From positions 20,510 to 84,509 of the IMG/VR virus record IMGVR_UViG_3300045963_000248: a stretch of 64,000 nt of DNA, one strand, 5' to 3'. This document shows, in pieces, positions 5,656 through 63,074 of this stretch; within the stretch, counting starts at the first letter, position 1; each line of letters starts with the position of its first letter. The notes under the pieces were generated by a model that was not told the origin of the DNA, did not search any database, and saw only the letters and a program-made list of their open reading frames with translations. A program made the position numbers and the translations under genes. The DNA is from a virus (lineage: Duplodnaviria; Heunggongvirae; Uroviricota; Caudoviricetes).

Positions 5656-6369
5656 ATGCACGACGAAAACGATCCAAGATTTAAAAAATTATTAGACAAT
5701 TTAAAAAGTCAGACGGATGCGTATAACGCTGCAAATAAACCTGTAATACAAATTCCAGATTCGTTGCAAGCTCATGGCGAAGTTACTCATCAAATTCCAA
5801 TGGATATGCCAAAATCTGTACCAGCGGAGCAACTTGCTCACGTAGCGGAAGAAATTCCACATAATCCAGGAATGTTAAAAAATCTAGAAGATCAATCTGC
5901 AAAATTCCTAGGCGCTGGAAATAAAATGGAGCAATTTGATCACGTGGTAAATCCAGCAAAAATCACAGATCTTTCCCCTCAGTTACTAAATAAATACATG
6001 AAAACTGGTATCCCTTTAGTCGATAAAGCATACAGTCCACTTGGAAATATCGCAAGAAAAGCTAGTAGCCTTGCTCCAGCGCTTTTAAAAGCTTTAGGAG
6101 TAGGAGGAGCACTTTACGGAATGTCTCAGGGGGATGCTTTTGCAGCCGATCCTACAGGTATGCTACACAGCGAGGAAGCTGGAAAAGGTAGCGATGTAAT
6201 TCCTACAGGTGCAGATCATTTCAATGCAGTAAACGACTCTAGAATGGATACTAAAATACTTCCTAAAGCTATTTCCCCGCAGTCCATAGACGCAACTCAG
6301 GAACCAGAGGAGCGGGCAAAGACGCAAGCATTCGATGCACTTTTAAATCAGATGAGACAGAAGCCTTAA
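5656..6369 (+). CDS. hypothetical head-module protein
   Basis: 237 aa ORF with SD (agaggg) between portal and scaffold. Confidence 0.5.
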   Translation: MHDENDPRFKKLLDNLKSQTDAYNAANKPVIQIPDSLQAHGEVTHQIPMDMPKSVPAEQLAHVAEEIPHNPGMLKNLEDQSAKFLGAGNKMEQFDHVVNPAKITDLSPQLLNKYMKTGIPLVDKAYSPLGNIARKASSLAPALLKALGVGGALYGMSQGDAFAADPTGMLHSEEAGKGSDVIPTGADHFNAVNDSRMDTKILPKAISPQSIDATQEPEERAKTQAFDALLNQMRQKP

Positions 6370-6697
6370 AACGTTTTACATACCAGTGTTTTGAAATATC
6401 AGGTCTTCTATAAGGTATTTTAGTATTATATTTGTATACACCGTTTAGCCAAGCATACGCTACGTGCTCAGGGGAATCCGTTCCAATAGTTTTTACCACA
6501 AAATCGTAACCTAAAGATGCTTTCTGTATTTCAGACAGTTTTACATTTTTGTATTTAAATGCTTTTTTAGCGTCCGAGAGGAATTTAGGCATAATGCCGT
6601 ATTCACCTTTTGCAGAGGAAGCATGTTGTAAATATTTCCCGTCTGAGGATTCGAGATAGCGTATAATTTTTAATGTTTCAGTTTTTTGCATATCCAT
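6269..6697 (-). CDS. putative lysozyme-like / lytic transglycosylase (SLT-like) protein; convergent moron in head module
   Basis: ES...GxxGIMP...AYAWLNG resembles SLT family motifs (ES / GLMQ / AYNxG); own sigma70 promoter 6704..6732 (-); 100-nt 3' overlap with 5656..6369. Confidence 0.4.
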   Translation of the reverse strand: MDMQKTETLKIIRYLESSDGKYLQHASSAKGEYGIMPKFLSDAKKAFKYKNVKLSEIQKASLGYDFVVKTIGTDSPEHVAYAWLNGVYKYNTKIPYRRPDISKHWYVKRFKASVSSDLKVHRMLASLPAPLVPELRLWTAGK

Positions 6698-6733: not shown

Positions 6734-6772
6734 TACACAAAAACAGATCAAATTTAACAACTTATACTGTAG
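6734..6772 (+). promoter_or_regulatory. phage late-promoter motif copy 3
   Basis: TACACA 6734..6739, N14, TTAACAACTTA 6754..6764, TAG 6770..6772; 31 nt identical to copy 4. Confidence 0.6.
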
Positions 6773-6812
6773 CAAGCAATAATGCCCTACAACTATAGCC
6801 TACCCCGAAAGG

Positions 6813-7757
6813 ATGGCAACAGGAGTATTTATGTCAGGTGAAAACGAAGGGTCAATCGACTCGTCGGCGGATTTTAGTCCAGAAGAAACAGCAGAATTTG
6901 ATGCAGAACAATCAGTTGGAGAGCAAGCTCCGGTATCTGCAGAACAAAAAGCTATCGAAGAGAAAATTAACGAATTAGAAATGGAACTTAAAGTTAACGG
7001 AAAAGTTATTAAGGAAAAAGTAAACCTTAACGATAAAGTACGTTTACAAAAAGCATTTCAAATGGAAAAAGCTGCACAGGAAGCAATGGCTAAATCTGCT
7101 AGCTCTCAAAAACAAATTGCTCAGATGGAGCAGGAAATGGATCAATTTTTACAAATGTTAAAAAATGACCCAATGAAAATTCTCAGTAATCCAGCTTTAG
7201 GATTAAAACTTGAAGATATGGCAGATAAAATACTAGCACAGAAAATTGAAGAAGCTAGCAAATCTCCAGAAACTATTGAGCTAGAAAAAGCTAGAGCAAA
7301 ACTAGAAGAATATGAAAAGAAAATACACGAAGAGAAATTAGCTAGAGAAACTGCAGAAAGACAGAAATTAGAAGCAGATGCAGAAGCTCATATTCAAGGT
7401 GAAATTATGGAAGCTATCGAATCTGGAAGCTTGCCGAAGTCTCCGTATATTATTAATAAAATGGCACAGCTTGCTAGTATTGCTTTTGATAATAATATTG
7501 ATGTAAACATGAAAGATTTAGCACCTATTGTAAAACGTATGTATTCTAGAGATATGAAGGATATGGCTGAAAAGATGTCAGATGATGAAATTGAAGAAAT
7601 TATTACATCGGATCGCGTTAAGAGTATTCGAAATAAAAGAATACAGGCGGCGAGAGGTAAAATGCAAAGTGCCACTAAAATTGTAGATACTGGCTCAAAA
7701 TCTCCTGCAAAAAAAGAAACTCCAGTACAAAGACGAAGACTCGATGCTGACTGGTAA
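6813..7757 (+). CDS. scaffolding protein (acidic coiled-coil)
   Basis: 314 aa, E/K-rich coiled-coil, located between portal and capsid. Confidence 0.55.
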   Translation: MATGVFMSGENEGSIDSSADFSPEETAEFDAEQSVGEQAPVSAEQKAIEEKINELEMELKVNGKVIKEKVNLNDKVRLQKAFQMEKAAQEAMAKSASSQKQIAQMEQEMDQFLQMLKNDPMKILSNPALGLKLEDMADKILAQKIEEASKSPETIELEKARAKLEEYEKKIHEEKLARETAERQKLEADAEAHIQGEIMEAIESGSLPKSPYIINKMAQLASIAFDNNIDVNMKDLAPIVKRMYSRDMKDMAEKMSDDEIEEIITSDRVKSIRNKRIQAARGKMQSATKIVDTGSKSPAKKETPVQRRRLDADW

Positions 7758-7785
7758 GATTAACTAAAATTTAACCCCTAACTGA

Positions 7786-7808
7786 GGGAGCTTATGGCTC
7801 CCTTTTCT
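7786..7808 (+). terminator. intrinsic terminator (GGGAGC-TTATG-GCTCCC + TTTT)
   Basis: 6-bp GC-rich stem 7786..7802 then T-run 7803..7806, after scaffold gene. Confidence 0.55.
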
Positions 7809-7841
7809 ACACAAAAACAGATCAAATTTAACAACTTATAG
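7808..7841 (+). promoter_or_regulatory. phage late-promoter motif copy 4 (start codon 7843 lies 2 nt after TAG: near-leaderless)
   Basis: TACACA 7808..7813, N14, TTAACAACTTA 7828..7838, TAG 7839..7841. Confidence 0.6.
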
Positions 7842-7842
7842 T

Positions 7843-8418
7843 ATGAAACATTGTAAAAAGTGTAATACTTTAAAGTTAAAAATTGAATTCCATAAAAATA
7901 AATCATTGAAAGATGGGCTATATGGAACTTGTAAAATTTGTACTAGAGCTATCAATAAACAATATACCAAAAACAATCCGGACATTATAAAAAAATCTAG
8001 TAGAAAATCTTATATTAAAAATAAAGATAAGATACTTTTAGAGAATAAAAAATGGGCAGAAAATAATACTGAAAAAGTAAAAGCTATAAAAAATAAATGG
8101 GCTAATAAACACATAGACCAAAAAAGAAGTAAAAATAGAAGGTGGAAAAAGGAAAATCCAGATAAAGTTAATGCTCAAACTGCTAAACGTCGAGCTGCTA
8201 AATTACAAGCAACTCCTCCTTGGATATCTGAGGAGCATTTAAAAGAAATAGAAAAATTCTATACGGAAGCTAAAAGGTTAGAAGCTACAGATGGAATTCC
8301 TCGAGAAGTGGATCATATATTACCTCTACAAGGGGATGGAGTTTCCGGTCTTCACGTTCCTTGGAATTTACAAGTTATTACTGAGTTTGAAAATAGAAGT
8401 AAACATAATAAATACTGA
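7843..8418 (+). CDS. HNH endonuclease with N-terminal CxxC zinc ribbon
   Basis: CKKC...CKIC ribbon, basic NK repeats, C-terminal AKLQATPPWISEEHL...GIPREVDHILPLQGDGVSGLHVPWNL motif. Confidence 0.8.
   Translation: MKHCKKCNTLKLKIEFHKNKSLKDGLYGTCKICTRAINKQYTKNNPDIIKKSSRKSYIKNKDKILLENKKWAENNTEKVKAIKNKWANKHIDQKRSKNRRWKKENPDKVNAQTAKRRAAKLQATPPWISEEHLKEIEKFYTEAKRLEATDGIPREVDHILPLQGDGVSGLHVPWNLQVITEFENRSKHNKY
8195..8375 (+). repeat. dispersed repeat (HNH C-terminal domain coding), copy 2 of 3
   Basis: ~75-80% nt identity to 1781..1960 and 9281..9460. Confidence 0.6.
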
Positions 8419-8586
8419 GAGTGAGACACTATGCTCATAAACTGTTCCCGAAAAAGAGACACATTCTAGGTAGCGAGAGGTCGGGATAAAAAAACCTATG
8501 CTGTTAAAACCTAGAGCCTTTGGTAGTTTCGGCGGTAAGAAACATGTAAACTATTTTATCACCCAGACTTCTTAGGGATTCTGGCG

Positions 8587-8618
8587 GCAAGGCTTCTTCG
8601 GAAGCCTTTGCTTTTTTA
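8587..8618 (+). terminator. intrinsic terminator (AAGGCTTC-UUCG-GAAGCCTT + T7)
   Basis: 8-bp stem with UUCG tetraloop 8589..8608, T-run 8612..8618. Confidence 0.6.
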
Positions 8619-8647
8619 TTGACTTGTATTTAAAAACATGATAGAAT
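8619..8647 (+). promoter_or_regulatory. sigma70-type promoter (TTGACT-17-TAGAAT)
   Basis: ttgact 8619..8624, tagaat 8642..8647, 17-nt spacer. Confidence 0.5.
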
Positions 8648-8653
8648 ACAATT

Positions 8654-8710
8654 CTCCTTAGATAAAAGTTGCTTTCCAGAAGAGCCGCTACTCACAGAGC
8701 GGCTTTTTTA
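8654..8710 (+). ncRNA. candidate small RNA (~57 nt) bounded by promoter 8619..8647 and terminator 8683..8710
   Basis: no ORF or start codon; promoter and terminator only ~35 nt apart. Confidence 0.35.
8683..8710 (+). terminator. intrinsic terminator (AGCCGCT-loop-AGCGGCT + T6)
   Basis: 7-bp stem 8683..8689 / 8698..8704, T-run 8704..8709. Confidence 0.6.
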
Positions 8711-8718
8711 TTTCTCCC

Positions 8719-8738
8719 GAAATTAACACTACAGTTAA
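8719..8738 (+). promoter_or_regulatory. degenerate late-promoter-like copy (AAATTAACACTACAGTTAAT)
   Basis: partial match to TTAACAACTTA..TAG core without the upstream TACACA half. Confidence 0.3.
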
Positions 8739-8768
8739 TATTAGGAGACAAACTAGAAAATTCCTCTA

Positions 8769-8787
8769 AAATTAACACTATAGTATG
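8769..8787 (+). promoter_or_regulatory. degenerate late-promoter-like copy (AAATTAACACTATAGTATG)
   Basis: core resembles copy 4/5 (TTAACA[A]CT[T]ATAGTAT) but with 2-nt deletion and no upstream half. Confidence 0.3.
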
Positions 8788-8821
8788 TATTAAATTTTGA
8801 CATGTTTTTGTATCAAAAAAC

Positions 8822-8855
8822 TGCATAAAAAACCTTTACAATTAACAACTTATAG
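8822..8855 (+). promoter_or_regulatory. phage late-promoter motif copy 5
   Basis: TGCATA 8822..8827, N14, TTAACAACTTA 8842..8852, TAG 8853..8855. Confidence 0.55.
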
Positions 8856-8872
8856 TATAAAGTATAGTTGAG

Positions 8873-9517
8873 GTGACTGTGAAAACTTGTACAAAGTGCG
8901 GCATTGAAAAAGAATTAACGGTTGATAATTTTAAACCAAGAAAGAAGTCTAAAGATGGATTTAGAAATGATTGTAGAGTATGTTCTAATTTAAAACATGC
9001 GGAATGGACTATTGAGAATTTAGATAAAGCAAAAGCTAATCAAGCTAGATGGTATCAGAATAATAAAGAACATGCCAAAATAGTTCAAGATAAATATTAC
9101 CAAGACAATAAAGAAAAGAAATTAGCACAGCAAAAAATTTATCGCAAAAATAATAAAATAAAAATAGATTTGAAAAATAAAAACTGGGCAGATAAGAATC
9201 CTGCTAAAATAAAACAGTATAATAAAGAATTCGGACAAAGACATCCTGACAAAATTGCAGCAAAAACTGCAAAAAGACGAGCTGCTAAACTACAAGCCAC
9301 TCCTCCGTGGCTTACAGAAGAGCACTTAAAGCAAATTGAAGATTTATATACTGAGTCTAAACGACTAGAAGCTTTAGATGGGATTCCTCGTGAAGTTGAT
9401 CATATCATACCGTTATTAGGGGAGACTGTTAGAGGTTTACACGTGCCTTGGAATTTAAGAGTAATTACGGCTAAAGAAAACGGTAGTAAAAACAATAAGT
9501 TAATTCTAATAGATTAA
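8873..9517 (+). CDS. HNH endonuclease with N-terminal CxxC zinc ribbon (GTG start; alternative GTG at 8879)
   Basis: CTKC...CRVC ribbon, basic NK repeats, C-terminal AKLQATPPWLTEEHL...GIPREVDHIIPLLGETVRGLHVPWNL. Confidence 0.8.
   Translation: MTVKTCTKCGIEKELTVDNFKPRKKSKDGFRNDCRVCSNLKHAEWTIENLDKAKANQARWYQNNKEHAKIVQDKYYQDNKEKKLAQQKIYRKNNKIKIDLKNKNWADKNPAKIKQYNKEFGQRHPDKIAAKTAKRRAAKLQATPPWLTEEHLKQIEDLYTESKRLEALDGIPREVDHIIPLLGETVRGLHVPWNLRVITAKENGSKNNKLILID
9281..9460 (+). repeat. dispersed repeat (HNH C-terminal domain coding), copy 3 of 3
   Basis: ~75-80% nt identity to 1781..1960 and 8195..8375. Confidence 0.6.
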
Positions 9518-9520
9518 AAT

Positions 9521-9557
9521 TACGCAACTTTCATTAAATTTTAACAACTTAATATAG
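9521..9557 (+). promoter_or_regulatory. phage late-promoter motif copy 6 (capsid operon)
   Basis: TACGCA 9521..9526, N14, TTAACAACTTA 9541..9551, TAG 9555..9557; followed by 130-nt leader with CCUC-UUCG-GGGG stem-loop. Confidence 0.6.
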
Positions 9558-9691
9558 GATTGCCTCTTCGGGGGAATACTAGATTAGACGCACAGCAAGC
9601 TTTCTGCCCTGTAGCCATCCTATCACGTAAATACCAAAAAAGCAATACTAATTTATTAAACTTATTATTATTTTAAACAAAGGATTTTTTT

Positions 9692-10939
9692 ATGGCAAAC
9701 GTTGCCGCAGACCTAACCCGATTAAACGGGCTTGTTAAAGAAGTGTATGGAGATAGTGTTATTGAACTTATTCCAATACAATCTAAACTTCAATCAATCA
9801 TTAAATTCGCTGAGAGAAACAAAACTCCAGGGAACTTTTTCTCTCAACCTTTAGCTCTTCAATTAGAGCACGGTGTAACTTATGCAGATGGTGACGATGG
9901 AGCTTTCGCTCTTAACGACGCTATTTCTTCTGTAGTTAAACATGCAAGAGTACGCGGTTCTCAAATGCTTTTGAGATCAGTAATCGCTTACGAACTTCTT
10001 GCAGCAGCTAATACAAAAGACAACAGATCTTTTGAAAACGCTACAAAATATATCGTTCAAGCAATGGTAGATTCTATGTCTAAAAAACATGAAGTATCAT
10101 TAATGTACGGTGGTAACAACATCGGTATCGTTTCTGGAGCAGTAACTTCTGCAGTTTCGATCACTGACGCTGAATGGGCACCAGGTATCTATTCAGGTGC
10201 AAAAGATATGAAAGTTGACATCTTTGACTCTGCAAAATCAGTGTTAAGAGGAACTTTCGTAATTTCAGGTGTTGACTTCGACCTTAAAAAAATTACTATG
10301 ACAACTGACGCTGCTGCGGCTGGTGTTGTTGCTACAGACGTAATCCTTCCTGCTGGTGCATACCAAATCGGTGGATCTTCTGCTGGTAAAGAAATGGTAG
10401 GATTACACGAAATCCTAGCTAACACTGGTACACTTTTCGAAATTTCTGCTGCTCAGTATGAATTATGGAAAGGTAACGTGTATAACGCTGGTGGAGAATT
10501 AACTTTCGAAAAACTTATTAAAGCAATGGCTCGTCCGGCTGAAAAAGGTTTAGAAAAAGACGTTATCGCTATCGTTAACCCAAAAACTTGGTCATCTTTA
10601 ATGAAAGATCAAGCTGCTTTAAGAAGATTTGACTCTTCATACAGCACTAAGAAATTAGATAACGGTGCAATGGCTATCGAATTTTATTGTCAATCAGGTA
10701 AAATTGAAGTTCAATCTTCTATTTACTGTAAAGAAGCTTACGCTTATATCTTCAATGCTGAAGACATGAAACGTATTGGTTCTACAGACATCACTTTCCA
10801 ATTACCAGGATTACCAGATAATTTCTTAACTCAAGCTCCAAACAATGCTGGATATGAATTAAGATGTTACGTAAACTCTGCATTATTCTGTAGAGCGCCA
10901 GGTAAGACTTTATTGATTACGGGTATCACGCATCCATGA
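9692..10939 (+). CDS. major capsid protein
   Basis: 415 aa after scaffold; own promoter, long leader, strong terminator downstream; composition typical of a highly expressed structural protein. Confidence 0.65.
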   Translation: MANVAADLTRLNGLVKEVYGDSVIELIPIQSKLQSIIKFAERNKTPGNFFSQPLALQLEHGVTYADGDDGAFALNDAISSVVKHARVRGSQMLLRSVIAYELLAAANTKDNRSFENATKYIVQAMVDSMSKKHEVSLMYGGNNIGIVSGAVTSAVSITDAEWAPGIYSGAKDMKVDIFDSAKSVLRGTFVISGVDFDLKKITMTTDAAAAGVVATDVILPAGAYQIGGSSAGKEMVGLHEILANTGTLFEISAAQYELWKGNVYNAGGELTFEKLIKAMARPAEKGLEKDVIAIVNPKTWSSLMKDQAALRRFDSSYSTKKLDNGAMAIEFYCQSGKIEVQSSIYCKEAYAYIFNAEDMKRIGSTDITFQLPGLPDNFLTQAPNNAGYELRCYVNSALFCRAPGKTLLITGITHP

Positions 10940-11014: not shown

Positions 11015-11530
11015 ATGATTAAATTTTTAATAAAATGTACAGAATGTCTAGAGGAGAAAAGTGAATCTGAATTTCATGGAGATCCTTTAAAAATTAATAG
11101 AAGAAGATCTAATTGTAAAAAGTGTGAGAATGCCAGGTGTGCTAGGTATTTTCAAAATAATAAAGAAAAGCGTAATGCTTATCAATTAGAGCGTCACCAT
11201 AAACGTAAACTAAGTGATCCTATGTATATTTTAAAACGTCGCTATAGGAATCGCCTTAAAAAAGTATTTCGCTACAAAGGCATTGTAAAAGTAACTTCCT
11301 CCATGGAATTCCTAGGATGTACCGCAGAAGAGTTTAAAGTTTATTTTGAAAGCTTATTTTCCCCCGAAATGAACTGGGATGCCGTTTACGCGGGAAAAAT
11401 CCATATCGACCATATTATCCCAATTTCCACCGCCAAAACAGAAGAAGAATTAGTAAAACTGTCACATTACACTAATTTACAACCTCTCTGGGCTGTTGAT
11501 AACTTGAAAAAAGGCTCCGGGGACATTTAG
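11015..11530 (+). CDS. HNH-family endonuclease-like protein with N-terminal Cys cluster
   Basis: CTEC...CKKC N-terminus; C-terminal HIDHIIPIS...N..PLW..DN motif. Confidence 0.55.
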   Translation: MIKFLIKCTECLEEKSESEFHGDPLKINRRRSNCKKCENARCARYFQNNKEKRNAYQLERHHKRKLSDPMYILKRRYRNRLKKVFRYKGIVKVTSSMEFLGCTAEEFKVYFESLFSPEMNWDAVYAGKIHIDHIIPISTAKTEEELVKLSHYTNLQPLWAVDNLKKGSGDI

Positions 11531-48777: not shown

Positions 48778-49290
48778 CTATTTTTCAGAAGCTGTCAAGT
48801 CTTTTATAAATCTACTTACACTTTGACGCGGAATTCCATATTTTCTAGATATCTGCATAACTTTTAAACCGTTTTGGAAGTCAATTCTAATCTCAGAAAT
48901 TAACTGAGGCTCGTGAGGTTTATCGCCTTTTTTAGAAACTGAATATCTAGATTTTCCAGCGACGTTATCGGTATTTTCTTTAGCTGATACCCATCTCAAA
49001 TTTGAAACGTGATTATTATTTTTATCTCTATCAATATGATCTATATATTTGTGATTTTCAGGATTAGGAATAAAAGCTTCGGCTACTAATCGATGAATGT
49101 ATTCTTGGTATAATTTAGGATTATACATTCCAACTTTCCAATAACCGTTACCGTTAGTAGAAAGCTTTAAATAAATTTCATTTTTAATTGAATAAACTTT
49201 ACCTGAGTCACAGATACAATAGTTCGGGCACTGAGGGATCACTTTCATGTTCATAAATACTCCTATGTTAATAGGACAAGTATAGCTCAA
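48778..49290 (-). CDS. HNH homing endonuclease (HNH_3 + C-terminal HTH)
   Basis: YWKVG...IHRLVAEAFIPNPENHKYIDHIDRDKNNNHVSNLRWVSAKEN; sits between polA and downstream genes. Confidence 0.8.
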   Translation of the reverse strand: MSYTCPINIGVFMNMKVIPQCPNYCICDSGKVYSIKNEIYLKLSTNGNGYWKVGMYNPKLYQEYIHRLVAEAFIPNPENHKYIDHIDRDKNNNHVSNLRWVSAKENTDNVAGKSRYSVSKKGDKPHEPQLISEIRIDFQNGLKVMQISRKYGIPRQSVSRFIKDLTASEK

Positions 49291-56729: not shown

Positions 56730-56950
56730 TCCTCGATTACAGCAACTTCGTGCATAGTTTCGCGGAATCTTTTCTCAAATCTTGGTATTAAATCTGACAG
56801 GTGTGAATTGTCCTCTTCCAGCTCCGGGTGTAAATCTATAAGTGCGTTTATAGCAACTTCTGGATCGTCACAGGATACTCTGTAAAGGTCTGTACAGATT
56901 TCGTAAAGCTCACTGTTGGGTACGTTCTGAATGTATTCTTGTATTTTCAT
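56699..56950 (-). CDS. small acidic protein
   Basis: 83 aa. Confidence 0.4.
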   Translation of the reverse strand: MKIQEYIQNVPNSELYEICTDLYRVSCDDPEVAINALIDLHPELEEDNSHLSDLIPRFEKRFRETMHEVAVIEEWARINGEYE

Positions 56951-57522: not shown

Positions 57523-58113
57523 CTAAATACCTAAATCATTTTCAGATTTAGCTGTTGTTTTATTTCTTGAAAAGCTTGGTGCTTTTACTGTTGCTTTTGC
57601 TGCAGAATCTGTGAGTTTTGGCGGTGTATTCCCATCGGCTAAAGTTGCAGCAGTAGATAATTTACCTTCTGGTAAGTTAGGTGCGGAAGCCTTCACTACT
57701 ACAGCTTGCGGAACAGGTCTAGCTTCTGTGCTAGCGTCGGTATCCTCAGATGCCATGCCTAAAATAGCTTGCAAACTGTATCTTCTTAAATACGAAATAG
57801 CTGCACCGGCTTTTTGAGTTACATTTATTTTATTCATTTCTGGAATACCAATACTGGATTCCTCTGAAATGTATTGTCCAGATTTATGTAATAAAATAGT
57901 TGTCAGGGAAACTTCCGTAAGTGTAGATTTACCTACAAGTTGAGTTACCGATAAACCATTTTTTTCTAACACTGGCTTTGCTGTCGCTAAAACGCTAGCA
58001 AGGTCGGAGTAATTGTATCCGTATCCTGAGCTGTCTTTTTTAGCTGTGGAAAGTTCTGCTTGAGCTAACGCTAACGCTGCTCCAATTTCGTTTAAGTTTT
58101 CTGATGTTCTCAT
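57523..58113 (-). CDS. ERF-family single-strand annealing protein
   Basis: SGYGYNYSDLASVLATAKPVLEKNGL resembles P22 Erf N-terminal motif (FGKYKYRSCEDILEGVKPLL). Confidence 0.6.
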   Translation of the reverse strand: MRTSENLNEIGAALALAQAELSTAKKDSSGYGYNYSDLASVLATAKPVLEKNGLSVTQLVGKSTLTEVSLTTILLHKSGQYISEESSIGIPEMNKINVTQKAGAAISYLRRYSLQAILGMASEDTDASTEARPVPQAVVVKASAPNLPEGKLSTAATLADGNTPPKLTDSAAKATVKAPSFSRNKTTAKSENDLGI

Positions 58114-58904
58114 TATTTTCCTCCTACGTGGATTTGTAAATTCGCATTTGAATTTCCAATTGCTTTATTAAAATCTTTTCTGACTTCGTAATCTAAATAG
58201 TCTCGCATTCCGATTCCGTAACGACTAGCTACTTCAGCTTTTACTTTCATTTCTGCATCCAGTAATTCTTTACGCATTGCTACCTGCTCCTGCTGAGCTT
58301 TAATTTCTAACTGCTGATTTCGGGTAACTTGAATTAACTGTAATGATTTCTCAATGTCAGCATTTAATTTTATAGTATTCAAATTCACACGAACGATTCT
58401 GAAAATGTCACCATATTGCTCATTAATAGTTTTTTGTAAAGCTTCTTTAATTTCATCCTCGATCGCTACTCGGTTCGAAGTAATATCTTTAGATTTAAAA
58501 CGTGCTACAGATTTTTGCAATTCGTTTACAAAAGCTTTCTGTAAAATATTATAACCTAAAACGTCATTAGCATTCCCGTTCTCATCTTTAATTCTAGCAA
58601 TGCTTTTAGTTTTTTTGTAAAAAGCAATTACCTTTTCTGGGTTTGTATCAAAAGTTAAATTTGCGTCTAACTCCTGTAATGGAATACTGTCAGCATCCCT
58701 CGCAGTAACGTTATCAGCATGTACGATATTTTGAGTTAAATCTATTGTCTGCATAGAATCTAAAACAACAAATTCAAAACCTGAAGTACGAATATCATCG
58801 TTAATTCTTCCCGAAAAGGTTGTGACGATTCCCGCTTTTCCTTGCTCCACGTAACTACAGCTTGCTAAACTAAATAGCAAACTAATTAATACTACTAATT
58901 TCAT
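58113..58904 (-). CDS. SPFH/band-7 (stomatin/HflK-like) domain lipoprotein
   Basis: lipobox LASC; SPFH-like core GKAGIVTTFSGRI...FEFVVLDSMQ...; coiled-coil C-terminus. Confidence 0.65.
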   Translation of the reverse strand: MKLVVLISLLFSLASCSYVEQGKAGIVTTFSGRINDDIRTSGFEFVVLDSMQTIDLTQNIVHADNVTARDADSIPLQELDANLTFDTNPEKVIAFYKKTKSIARIKDENGNANDVLGYNILQKAFVNELQKSVARFKSKDITSNRVAIEDEIKEALQKTINEQYGDIFRIVRVNLNTIKLNADIEKSLQLIQVTRNQQLEIKAQQEQVAMRKELLDAEMKVKAEVASRYGIGMRDYLDYEVRKDFNKAIGNSNANLQIHVGGK

Positions 58905-61544: not shown

Positions 61545-62276
61545 CTACATCATTATTGTCCAAAAGTCATCACTCATATTACGATTTTGTATAACTTTAA
61601 ATGGCATCCAAAAATAGCCATTTTGACCCCAATCGTCTCCCCACGAGTTTTTAACTAGTAACATCTTTTTATGAGTATTGTACCCTATAGCAACTACTGC
61701 ATGCCCTCCGGCTGCTCTTTCCAATAGTTTAGGGTAAGGCATTATTCCAGTATTAGCAACTTCCTCAGTTAGGAAAGATTCATATACTGTAAATCCCATT
61801 ACTATGCCGTGCCCGGAAGCTATACAATCTAGCATTTCTTTTAGATTACTTACCCGGCGGTAACTTAGAAGTTTTCTATGCATTGCGTTTGCATAAGCCA
61901 GTGCGGAAGGTTCTTTTTTAAATGCCTCCACAATATATGGGTAAAACTGTTCAGAGCAAGCTCCAACTTTAGCGCATGCTTTTATCCCGTCTCGAATCGA
62001 TGCTCCGGAATCATTACTAATCGAGCCTTCCAGTTTTCGTTCCTGAAAGTAAATAAATAAAGCAGAGATTTCAGTTTTAGCTACTAACTCTTCTTCAATT
62101 AAACTTGCAATTGCGTTTCCAGTACACGAGCCTAAATCCCCCTGATCTTTTATAGCGGAATCTTCGTCTCGTAAATCCATAGATACTGGAAGTTTCATAT
62201 TTGACATTTTATATTTTAGATCTCTGTGATCTGGTAAATCTGGTAGCCATTTTTTTGCTATTTTAAAATTTTGCAT
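61545..62276 (-). CDS. papain-family (C1) cysteine peptidase
   Basis: catalytic Cys QGDLGSCTGNAIAS, His GGHAVVAIGY, Asn KNSWGDDWGQNGYFWMPF: canonical C1 triad context. Confidence 0.75.
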   Translation of the reverse strand: MQNFKIAKKWLPDLPDHRDLKYKMSNMKLPVSMDLRDEDSAIKDQGDLGSCTGNAIASLIEEELVAKTEISALFIYFQERKLEGSISNDSGASIRDGIKACAKVGACSEQFYPYIVEAFKKEPSALAYANAMHRKLLSYRRVSNLKEMLDCIASGHGIVMGFTVYESFLTEEVANTGIMPYPKLLERAAGGHAVVAIGYNTHKKMLLVKNSWGDDWGQNGYFWMPFKVIQNRNMSDDFWTIMM

Positions 62277-62282
62277 ATATTC

Positions 62283-63074
62283 CTATGGTGCCGTTACAGT
62301 TGCATGGTCGAGCGTGACTGCAGTCTGTGCTAATAATCTTCCATTAATTGTTGCTCCTGTTTGCATTGCAATTAATGTTTGGGAAAGTATATTCCCTTCC
62401 ATGTGTGCTCCTGTACCTACAGTTACAACATCTCCTACGACAAAGAAAATATTCTTAGCTTGGATTCCTCCAGTTAAAATTATATGCATTCCAGAAGCTA
62501 CAGTAACTCCTCCGGCAATCTGTAAAATAATTACATCTTCAGATCCTCCGTTAAAATAAACATCAGAGGCAATTAGTAAACCAGTTCCCCATTTGTATAG
62601 TCCAGGTTCCAAAGTTAGTCCACTAATATTTCCACTAGCTAATTCAGTTGCATCCGGATTAGGTCTGCCCATAGCATCGGTGTAAGCTGCTTCCATATCT
62701 GAAACTGCAGTAGTTAAATTACTCGGAGTCGGGACTGCGTAATTCGCAGCATAGATTTTTCCAGTAACTTGAGCTGAAGTTGAGAAAACATTTGAAGCAT
62801 CGGCTACTAAAGAAAATCCTGTAATAAAAGATGCAGCGGCGGGACTCACTCCTAAATTTCCAGTAATAGTCGAAGGCACCACTGTTGAAATTGCAGCCTT
62901 TGCTAGGATTACAAAATTACCTGCAGTACGCAAGTTTACTGGATCTGGTCCAGCCATTTGTCCGGGATTCTGAGTGTGACCGGAGTCTGCTCCACTCGGC
63001 GGAGAGTCGCTTCCGCAACTTGTTAGCAATAGCAATCCAGCTAGGATTACAATCGCCATTTTTAACTTTTTCAT
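62283..63074 (-). CDS. DUF3494 (ice-binding-like beta-helix) lipoprotein
   Basis: lipobox LLLTSC; LRTAGNFVILAKAAISTV...ITGNLGVSPAA and C-terminal repetitive beta-helix typical of DUF3494. Confidence 0.65.
   Translation of the reverse strand: MKKLKMAIVILAGLLLLTSCGSDSPPSGADSGHTQNPGQMAGPDPVNLRTAGNFVILAKAAISTVVPSTITGNLGVSPAAASFITGFSLVADASNVFSTSAQVTGKIYAANYAVPTPSNLTTAVSDMEAAYTDAMGRPNPDATELASGNISGLTLEPGLYKWGTGLLIASDVYFNGGSEDVIILQIAGGVTVASGMHIILTGGIQAKNIFFVVGDVVTVGTGAHMEGNILSQTLIAMQTGATINGRLLAQTAVTLDHATVTAP

Follow-up and report, generated by a model that had tools for sequence, protein, structure and literature searches.

A candidate small-RNA unit within an HNH-cassette mosaic between the putative scaffold and major capsid protein genes of an uncultivated tailed phage

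The intergenic island at positions 8419-8872 was analyzed in a 64,000-nt stretch of DNA (the window, at its full length; G+C 36%) from an uncultivated tailed phage, whose genome is about 84.5 kb with about 20 kb lying beyond the window. Comparison with related phages indicated that segment 8619-8710 of this island, which holds a sigma70-type promoter (P8619), a predicted transcript of about 56 nt and its intrinsic terminator (term2), is a displaced copy of a unit that once stood on the 3' end of the putative scaffold gene. On balance, we regard the segment as probably a dispensable short unit read by host RNA polymerase, with the architecture of a small RNA (sRNA) of the 3' untranslated region (3' UTR) type such as DapZ. 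Judged from its sequence, the island itself is a recombination mosaic at the junction of two tandem HNH endonuclease cassettes (HNH1 and HNH2), each with its own terminator or promoter module, and this architectural result was more certain than the small-RNA reading. The elements listed in the original prediction were all located at its coordinates, and each is less frequent than chance predicts. They do not form one designed array: in a comparison with about 10 related lineages they were traced to separate cassettes and to the phage backbone. The mosaic accounts for the pile-up of terminators and promoters without any designed regulatory array.

The relatives were gathered by searches with the major capsid protein (MCP) in IMG/VR, JGI metagenomes and a protein database with its 90% cluster, together with the encoding contigs, and the comparison set comprised 10 informative lineages besides the window's own phage, which are cited here by locus labels (L001 and so on). 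An MCP identical to that of the window was found on one JGI contig, and 3 other contigs were 100% identical over 7700-9700. No DNA match to the window was present in the INPHARED phage collection, where the protein search with the MCP gave a sole match, 26% identical, in a Silvanigrella phage. When exact and degenerate patterns of the promoter, the -10/start region and the terminator tail were searched in IMG/VR (the collection without the window itself), 0 matches were obtained. The plus strand of the window from about 0.6 to 40.4 kb carries the structural genes, including those for the large terminase, portal, putative scaffold and MCP, and the minus strand carries replication genes for a family A DNA polymerase, a DnaB-like helicase, ERF and others.

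The displaced nature of the unit was recognized from homologs in L008, L023/L024 and L017. Window 8636-8745 aligned with L008 3551-3660, directly 3' of the scaffold stop codon, where the order is TTGACG-17-TGgTAGACT, about 40 nt, a terminator, and then TATTTCCC and a palindrome. In L008 and L023/L024 the scaffold gene reaches into the promoter: its Leu-Asp-Ala codons contain the -35, and its stop codon falls in the spacer. In L008 and L023 the homolog of term2 directly follows the scaffold stop as the sole terminator after that gene. In L017, the -10, body and terminator stand after its HNH gene. The stems of the term2 homologs in L008, L023 and L017 differ by compensatory changes. The homologous stretches of these three lineages are 52-60 nt long, with a common 5' CUCC (CUCA in L017) and a common UUCCA-N4-5-AGCC before the hairpin; CUCCU(U)AGAUAAA is common to the window and L023, and the rest of the RNA body diverges. 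By this comparison, term2 and the body of the proposed sRNA derive from the upstream late gene, whose mRNA they originally ended as terminator and 3' UTR, a role that is evident in L008, L023 and L017. A covariance search in related phages had been suggested by the original prediction; a model of the unit recovered the four copies (window, L008, L023 and L017) and no further ones over 235 kb (window and relatives).

The promoter geometry has been kept in the four lineages. The P8619 homologs read TTGACG-17-TGgTAGACT in L008, TTGACG-17-TATAAT in L023 and TTGCGG-17-TATACT in L017, the last with a weak -35 and no TG, and the 17-nt spacer is exact in 4 of 4 copies (window, L008, L023/L024 and L017). 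In the -10 elements TAGAAT, TAGACT, TATAAT and TATACT, aligned in a register set by hand, T1, A2, A4 and T6 are fixed and positions 3 and 5 vary. For sigma70, T1, A2 and T6 are the weightiest positions of the -10, and positions 3 and 5 are tolerant. The bases just upstream vary, and the discriminators, aligned in the same register, diverge among the copies (ACAATTC, AAAAGTC, GGTGTC and AAAACTC).

P8619 also belongs to a promoter class that is enriched in the window. The extended -10 pattern T[TA]GACN-(16-18)-TGNTANNNT occurred 11 times, compared with 1.18 +/- 0.96 in Markov shuffles. The minus strand carries 9 of these sites, 6 of which are within about 35 nt of a Shine-Dalgarno (SD) sequence and start codon of a minus-strand gene (near 56950, 52110, 44795, 44085, 42085 and 6697); P8619 is the sole intergenic member on the plus strand. 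The enrichment, together with the position at minus-strand gene starts, argues that this is a real phage promoter class, presumably read by the host polymerase in early or mid infection. The predicted TTGACT-17-TAGAAT promoter abutting a terminator was thus found in place and in an enriched class, with its -35 beginning right after the upstream terminator (term1), TG at 8639-8640 and the -10 at 8642-8647, and by its sequence it qualifies as a sigma70 extended -10 promoter. Two perfect TTGACA/TATAAT promoters on the plus strand, at 340-368 and 404-431, show that canonical sigma70 signals are in use by the host. Between them and the first late promoter at 561 there is a non-coding stretch of about 110 nt with a higher G+C content, and 340-560 may be an early leader or another non-coding RNA. 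A member of the extended -10 class at 6732-6704 (minus strand) serves a 142-aa gene at 6269-6697 (minus strand), which lies inside the plus-strand late module, overlaps the end of the upstream plus-strand open reading frame (ORF), and is kept in L001, L003, L008, L012, L017, L018 and L022. A 5-bp hairpin over the -10 of P8619 (AGAAT/ATTCT; AGACT/AGUCU in L008) was considered and rejected as too weak (-0.6 kcal/mol, z -0.16).

Downstream of P8619, the GC-stem terminator of the original prediction was supported by RNA folding: term2 folded at -16.7 kcal/mol (z -2.3), and 2 of 200 shuffles were as stable. The simple terminator scan missed term2, which rests on the fold. Term1 and term2 each consist of a G+C-rich hairpin directly before a U tract. 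The candidate transcript had been described as lacking an ATG, and indeed neither an ATG nor an SD sequence was present in 8654-8710. The only ORFs over the segment are one of 43 aa on the plus strand (8669-8800) and one of 44 aa on the minus strand (8692-8826), the latter called as a gene on the identical contigs L014 and L015. That the segment exists for the sake of one of these small proteins is hardly credible: the plus-strand ORF starts at TTG without an SD sequence and continues across the terminator, no matching frame exists in the corresponding stretches of L008, L023 and L017, and tblastn at E < 0.6 detected neither ORF in any of the relatives. Among known RNA families, the whole window gave 0 matches at Rfam gathering thresholds and nothing meaningful was obtained for 7700-9750 at E up to 10; the best sub-threshold match over 8678-8797 was BTnc231, on the minus strand, with 27 bits against a threshold of 80.

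A history of the locus may be proposed from these comparisons. The ancestral unit would have consisted of a sigma70-type promoter whose -35 overlapped the final codons of the scaffold gene, an RNA stretch of about 30 nt without structure, and the terminator of the scaffold mRNA. Two free-standing HNH cassettes would then have been inserted in tandem between the putative scaffold and MCP genes, and the insertion of the HNH1 cassette would have parted the scaffold gene from the small unit on its 3' end, leaving 8619-8710 intact just 3' of term1. Host RNA polymerase probably fires at P8619 together with the minus-strand early genes of the same promoter class, transcription would stop at term2, and an RNA of about 56 nt would be released. 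The remainder of the island would be backbone, namely the palindrome and a regulatory spacer before the MCP late promoter, plus the portable promoter of HNH2. The firing of the promoter, the accumulation of the RNA and any activity of this RNA are what we infer from the sequence.

Several observations weighed against an sRNA unit. Term2 has an obvious other job, that of ending late transcripts, and its homolog ends the upstream late gene in L008, L023 and L017. The scaffold Leu-Asp codons dictate the -35 of L008 and L023, and L018 has TTGACA at the scaffold end without a usable -10, so part of the promoter could be a coding by-product; in the L017 copy the -35 is poor and the TG is lacking. 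The close lineages L003, L011, L012, L013, L018 and L022 do not carry the unit, nor do the distant L001 and L004. Its absence from six close lineages means that it is dispensable and not needed for growth, and the patchy distribution means that any function must be accessory. In favor of the unit, the lineages that bear it are paraphyletic within a clade of 84-94% MCP nucleotide identity, and this scatter suggests that it is old, with repeated loss or replacement. The conservation in relatives for which the original prediction had looked was found in three lineages and failed in the others. Against it, the unit of the window and that of L008 are about 66% identical, not above the neighboring scaffold gene (73%), which gives no clear sign that purifying selection has acted on the RNA body outside CUCC and UUCCA. 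In addition, a k-mer search revealed no complementarity of >=12 nt to the candidate RNA elsewhere in the window, and the best duplex among 87 start regions (-22 kcal/mol) was equalled by 8% of shuffled RNAs.

These same points would be explained if the segment were a relic without a function of its own, in which term2 is the stranded scaffold terminator, the promoter hexamers are neutral products of Leu-Asp codons and A/T-rich chance, and the RNA is noise. Most relatives lack the unit, its body is no better kept than the coding backbone, no target was found in the phage, and 10/12 sigma70-like hexamer matches are not rare in this AT-rich window (75 against 61 expected in 20 kb). We consider such a relic possible, if rather unlikely. 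The extended -10 pattern is about 9-fold enriched and elsewhere stands at real gene starts, and the exact 17-nt spacing and four critical -10 positions were kept in four lineages in which neighboring bases vary. Moreover, the TTGAC of the window -35 is intact though no longer coding, and the adjoining spacer is only about 50% identical to that of L008 (9 of 18 positions). The reading as a unit transcribed by host polymerase thus retained a plausible promoter/terminator pair of an enriched class with homologs in three lineages; the predicted host-driven small RNA is dispensable, and its terminator and body derive from an ancestral 3' UTR.

Two further explanations keep the promoter and assign the segment another purpose. 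In the first, it would be an attenuator or antitermination module like lambda PR'-tR', in which host polymerase initiates constitutively, halts at term2 unless modified by a phage factor that allows read-through into the capsid gene, and yields the RNA as a by-product. The combination of a strong promoter and an immediately adjoining terminator 5' of the MCP gene has this appearance, only about 290 nt of spacer separate the unit from the MCP gene in L008, and by-product RNAs can turn into regulators, as did StxS (PMC7547250). We hold this to be very unlikely, as a conserved phage-specific promoter stands before the MCP gene and before each of about 10 other late genes, the MCP promoter and leader are unchanged in relatives that lack the unit, and no Q-like or N-like antiterminator family was detected in Pfam and PHROG scans of 40 window proteins, which are part of the ORFs. 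In the second, P8619 would be an early or middle promoter for HNH2, with term2 as a leaky attenuator, and the endonuclease would be made before late transcription. HNH2 begins 165 nt past term2, and promoters of this class stand immediately 5' of the start codons of the intron-borne GIY-YIG genes in L002 and L013. There is little chance that this applies here: L008 has the unit without an HNH gene, a convergent minus-strand gene separates the unit from the HNH gene in L023, HNH2 brings its own late-promoter module, and term2 looks efficient, with a 7-bp GC-rich stem and then U6.

A specific role for the unit can be imagined and is improbable in all its details. It would be an accessory sRNA gene of the 3'-UTR type, transcribed early by host RNA polymerase from within the structural module, whose exposed 5' CUCC(U)U mimics the anti-Shine-Dalgarno sequence and blocks the translation of host mRNAs or premature late mRNAs. 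The phage would have no fewer than two genes of this kind, the other lying at about 206-135 (minus strand) with the loop CCCUCCCUC, and it would have outlived severance from its parent gene by an endonuclease cassette. The second ORF-less promoter/terminator unit was observed on the minus strand, with a promoter at 241-213 (TTGACA-17-TGtTATTAT) and a transcript from about 206 to 135 that comprises a small hairpin (GCUCA-GGA-UGAGC), an 11-bp terminator hairpin with the 14-nt loop CAUUCCCUCCCUCUUUUG, and U7. It folded at -22.4 kcal/mol (z -2.35) and looks like a stronger sRNA candidate than 8654-8709. When relatives of the large terminase (TerL) were sought as a comparison for it, only 55%-identical phages without common DNA were obtained. 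A transcription-primed origin near 8.7 kb was also considered and dropped, as GC skew merely tracks gene orientation and no origin-like signal was seen.

Table 1. Coordinates of the features in and around the 8419-8872 island and of selected genes of the window
Feature	Position	Strand	Description
Putative scaffold gene	6813-7757	+	314 aa, acidic; named by position
Intrinsic terminator of the scaffold gene	7784..7808	+	GAGGGAGCT-TAT-GGCTCCCTT and T run; left edge of the HNH1 cassette
HNH1 late-promoter module	7808..7842	+	Motif TTAACAACTTATAGTA reaching the ATG at 7843
HNH1, free-standing HNH/EndoVII-family endonuclease	7843..8418	+	191 aa; PHROG 1035, E 3e-24
Conserved ~102-nt element 3' of HNH1	8452..8556	+	96% identical to L003 5560-5661
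term1, intrinsic terminator	8587..8618	+	GCAAGGCTTC-TTCG-GAAGCCTtTGC and T6; right end of the HNH1 cassette
P8619, extended -10 sigma70-type promoter	8619..8647	+	TTGACT (8619-8624), 17 nt, TGaTAGAAT
Predicted ~56-nt non-coding transcript	8654..8709	+	Single-stranded 5' part CUCCUUAGAUAAAAGUUGCUUUCCAG, then terminator hairpin
term2, intrinsic terminator	8683..8710	+	Stem AGCCGCT/AGCGGCT, 8-nt loop, T6-A-T3
Conserved imperfect palindrome, 14-bp	8713..8748		CTCCCGAAATTAAC-ACTACA-GTTAATATTAGGAG
Second "degenerate" copy	8769..8792	+	Local duplicate of 8720-8743
Portable late-promoter module of the HNH2 cassette	8822..8859	+	Intact motif at 8840-8858
HNH2 endonuclease gene	8873..9517	+	Start probably GTG 8879, after SD GAGGTGA
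MCP gene	9692-10939	+	
SPFH/Band 7 gene	58113-58904	-	
Papain-family protease gene	61545-62276	-	
Ice-binding-like gene	62283-63074	-	E 3e-67

The sequence in front of the unit was assigned to the HNH1 cassette. This cassette starts with a terminator and a late-promoter module of 33 nt, continues with the ORF and a 3' region, and ends with term1. The terminator at its left edge folded at -14.1 kcal/mol (z -3.4), and a similar GGGAGC..GCTCCC terminator was found 3' of the scaffold gene in L001 and L013. The 33-nt module (7808-7840) matches the promoter module of the scaffold gene (6734-6766) at every position, as read through the coordinates of L014. Assemblies L015 and L016, independent Logan assemblies of the same phage, both begin at window 7811 and so break at this 33-nt repeat. 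In the window (7828-7845), as in L003 (4914-4931), the late-promoter motif abuts the ATG (TTAACAACTTATAGTATG), which implies that the HNH1 mRNA would be leaderless or nearly so. An ortholog of HNH1 with 67% nucleotide identity occupies the same site in L018. HNH1 and HNH2 are 46% identical to each other, and exact-protein look-ups found neither of them on record.

The right end of the HNH1 cassette contains two distinct parts. The first is an element of about 102 nt with 4 differences in 102 nt between the window and L003, compared with backbone identities of 78% (scaffold) and 85% (MCP) and only 41% amino acid identity for the adjacent HNH genes. Two of the 4 differences form a compensatory pair (CTAGGT..ACCTAG to CTAGAT..ATCTAG) in a predicted hairpin; the fold of the element as a whole is unexceptional (z -0.55), and a possible 25-aa ORF (MLLKPRAFGSFGGKKHVNY...) inside it has one difference from L003, which is non-synonymous. 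Beyond the window and L003, the element was found in none of the other loci compared, the IMG/VR pattern search or GTDB genomes. Both a recent recombination tract and a constrained RNA element are possible. The second part, 8557-8618, had no counterpart in any relative compared and, on this ground, is taken as the right end of the insert that came with HNH1. It contains term1, the UUCG-loop terminator of the original prediction, which was recovered both by folding (-15.3 kcal/mol, z -3.4, 0 of 200 shuffles as stable) and by a terminator scan of 7500-10000, where it was among 6 terminator-like sites compared with 1.1 expected.

Beyond term2, the palindrome belongs to the backbone. Its fold has an energy of -11.1 kcal/mol (z -4.9), a stability reached by 0 of 200 shuffles, and it stands at the same place in L003, L008, L011, L012, L017 and L018, with a core ATTARC-N6-GYTAAT and extended arms. 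In its alignment, 74.5% of cells were paired compared with 16-41% when the partner was slid, and 3 pairs change on both sides. From its place just 3' of the terminator and 5' of the MCP promoter region, it may act as an operator or, in the transcript, as an RNA hairpin. Downstream of it, L008, L011, L012 and L018 have the common repeats AAATAGTCA, AAAAGTGAC and (G/T)TGTCA(T/A)AT. The two degenerate late-promoter copies that had been predicted here, 8720-8743 and 8769-8792, are present as sequences, 83% identical over 24 nt at a spacing of 49 nt and each 2 nt short of the core motif. Their identity was revised: the first is the left arm of the palindrome, and the second is a local duplicate of the first.

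The intact late-promoter copy predicted before the second HNH gene was found, and it belongs to a portable module. A copy with 97% identity to segment 8822..8859 is found at L003 7307-7344, in front of an unrelated HNH gene that lies 3' of the MCP gene. On the identical contigs, the start that the gene caller assigned to HNH2 corresponds to 8879, and the backbone resumes at 9518 (AAATTACGCA...TTTAACAACTTA) as it stands 5' of the MCP gene in all relatives. The 19-mer of the late motif had 4 matches at <=3 mismatches compared with 0.08 expected, and its 16-mer core about 10 intergenic copies, all on the plus strand and upstream of plus-strand genes. The family reads wwTTTAACAACTTA(N2-5)TAG and is kept upstream of the MCP gene in all relatives. 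With its AT-rich TATA and then G, the motif looks like a promoter of a single-subunit (T7-like) RNA polymerase, and its conservation and place upstream of late genes fit the form of such promoters (a motif of about 17-23 nt that ends at a +1 purine). Scans of window proteins revealed no RNA polymerase, the window covering 64 of about 84.5 kb. Leaders of the late genes (window 9557-9691, 577-684 and 6770-6812) have a hairpin right after the promoter and the motif AGCAAGC-N4-6-GCCC. The same features occur in the MCP leaders, about 150 nt long, of L001, L003, L004, L008, L012, L017 and L018, and the late-gene leader may be a conserved leader RNA element.

The contents of the gap between the scaffold and MCP genes differ in nearly every lineage compared. 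No endonuclease gene stands in the gap of L008, L012, L022, L001 and L004, among which L008 has the short unit and the others do not. The HNH1 ortholog of L018 is present without the unit. At the HNH1 site, L003 has a different HNH gene and has lost the unit by deletion, and L017 has a different HNH gene and the unit with a weak promoter. L023/L024 have an HNH gene at an HNH2-like site together with the unit. L011 lacks the unit and has an additional 77-aa minus-strand gene (167-400), which lies between the scaffold terminator and the palindrome and occurs likewise in L023 (1755-1988, minus strand), where it is convergent with the short unit. In L013, which also lacks the unit, a GIY-YIG insertion splits the MCP gene. 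This intron-like insertion of about 950 nt (L013 4060-5001; L002 643-1597) is probably a group I intron; the GIY-YIG endonuclease gene inside it has an extended -10 promoter to itself, TTGACA-18-TGGTAtACT, directly before the start codon. Taken together, the comparisons indicate that the gap is a hot spot of homing-endonuclease traffic, both HNH and GIY-YIG, with short portable terminator/promoter modules, and that short terminator/late-promoter modules travel with, or guide, the endonuclease genes.

Other endonuclease genes were noted elsewhere in the window. A third paralog of the HNH1/HNH2 family lies at 1385-2026 just 5' of the large terminase gene, a distinct HNH gene follows the MCP gene at 11015-11530, and an HNH_3/NUMOD4 gene (48778-49290, minus strand) in the early region adjoins the DNA polymerase gene. 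The early region also contains three genes that are unusual in a phage, encoding an ice-binding-like protein, a papain-family protease and an SPFH/Band 7 protein (Table 1). ARAGORN found no tRNA and no tmRNA in the window.

To our knowledge, few phage sRNAs have been characterized outside prophages and model phages. If the RNA from 8654-8709 is made, virulent environmental phages would carry DapZ-style 3'-UTR small RNAs in structural operons, and a unit of this type would be able to survive as a gene in its own right when its locus is rearranged by homing-endonuclease cassettes.

Both the unit and the cassettes around it belong to known kinds, namely the phage small-RNA candidate and the homing-endonuclease mosaic. 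Salmonella DapZ, V. cholerae MicX and E. coli MicL are 3'-UTR-derived sRNAs with their own promoter near the upstream stop codon (PMC9438474). The phage unit resembles this type in that the -35 in L008 and L023 overlaps the end of the upstream coding sequence, the predicted RNA is the 3' UTR with the intrinsic terminator of the mRNA, and a single-stranded 5' part leads into a U-tailed terminator hairpin. It differs in lying in a structural module of lytic type, in being much shorter (52-60 nt), and in having no target found in the phage; in addition, the promoter within the coding sequence is found in L008 and L023 but not in the window, whose copy is severed from its parent gene by the intervening HNH1 cassette. 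For the short transcript of lambda PR'-tR' (6S RNA) and its derivative StxS (PMC7547250), there is likewise a host sigma70 promoter with an immediate intrinsic terminator, a place before the late structural genes and a short by-product RNA. By contrast, the late genes of this phage have their own promoters, the RNA would be shorter, and no qut-like features or antiterminator gene were identified.

The mosaic is reminiscent of the PeSL cassettes of T4-like phages, in which modules of a stem-loop terminator and a sigma70 promoter flank optional genes and mark recombination joints (PMC2839356, PMC4122927). Here too a stem-loop (term1) abuts a promoter (P8619), and short portable modules flank optional genes. 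Unlike PeSL, the shuffled modules carry the phage-specific late promoter rather than a sigma70 promoter, and the term1/P8619 pair is single-copy and followed by a terminator instead of an SD sequence and a gene, which places it outside that class. As in other free-standing HNH cassettes, the presence of the genes varies at the same intergenic sites, paralogs recur (at 1385, 7843 and 8873) and the genes have their own promoters; the portable late-promoter modules of this phage differ in being better conserved than the putative homing genes that they accompany. A further parallel is offered by intergenic small-RNA candidates of lytic phages identified from transcript-end mapping, such as LUZ7 sRNA1-3 (PMC9163698). 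The LUZ7 candidates were observed as RNA and that of 8654-8709 is a prediction, but both are short and non-coding, with a defined start and terminator, in an intergenic gap of a virulent phage.

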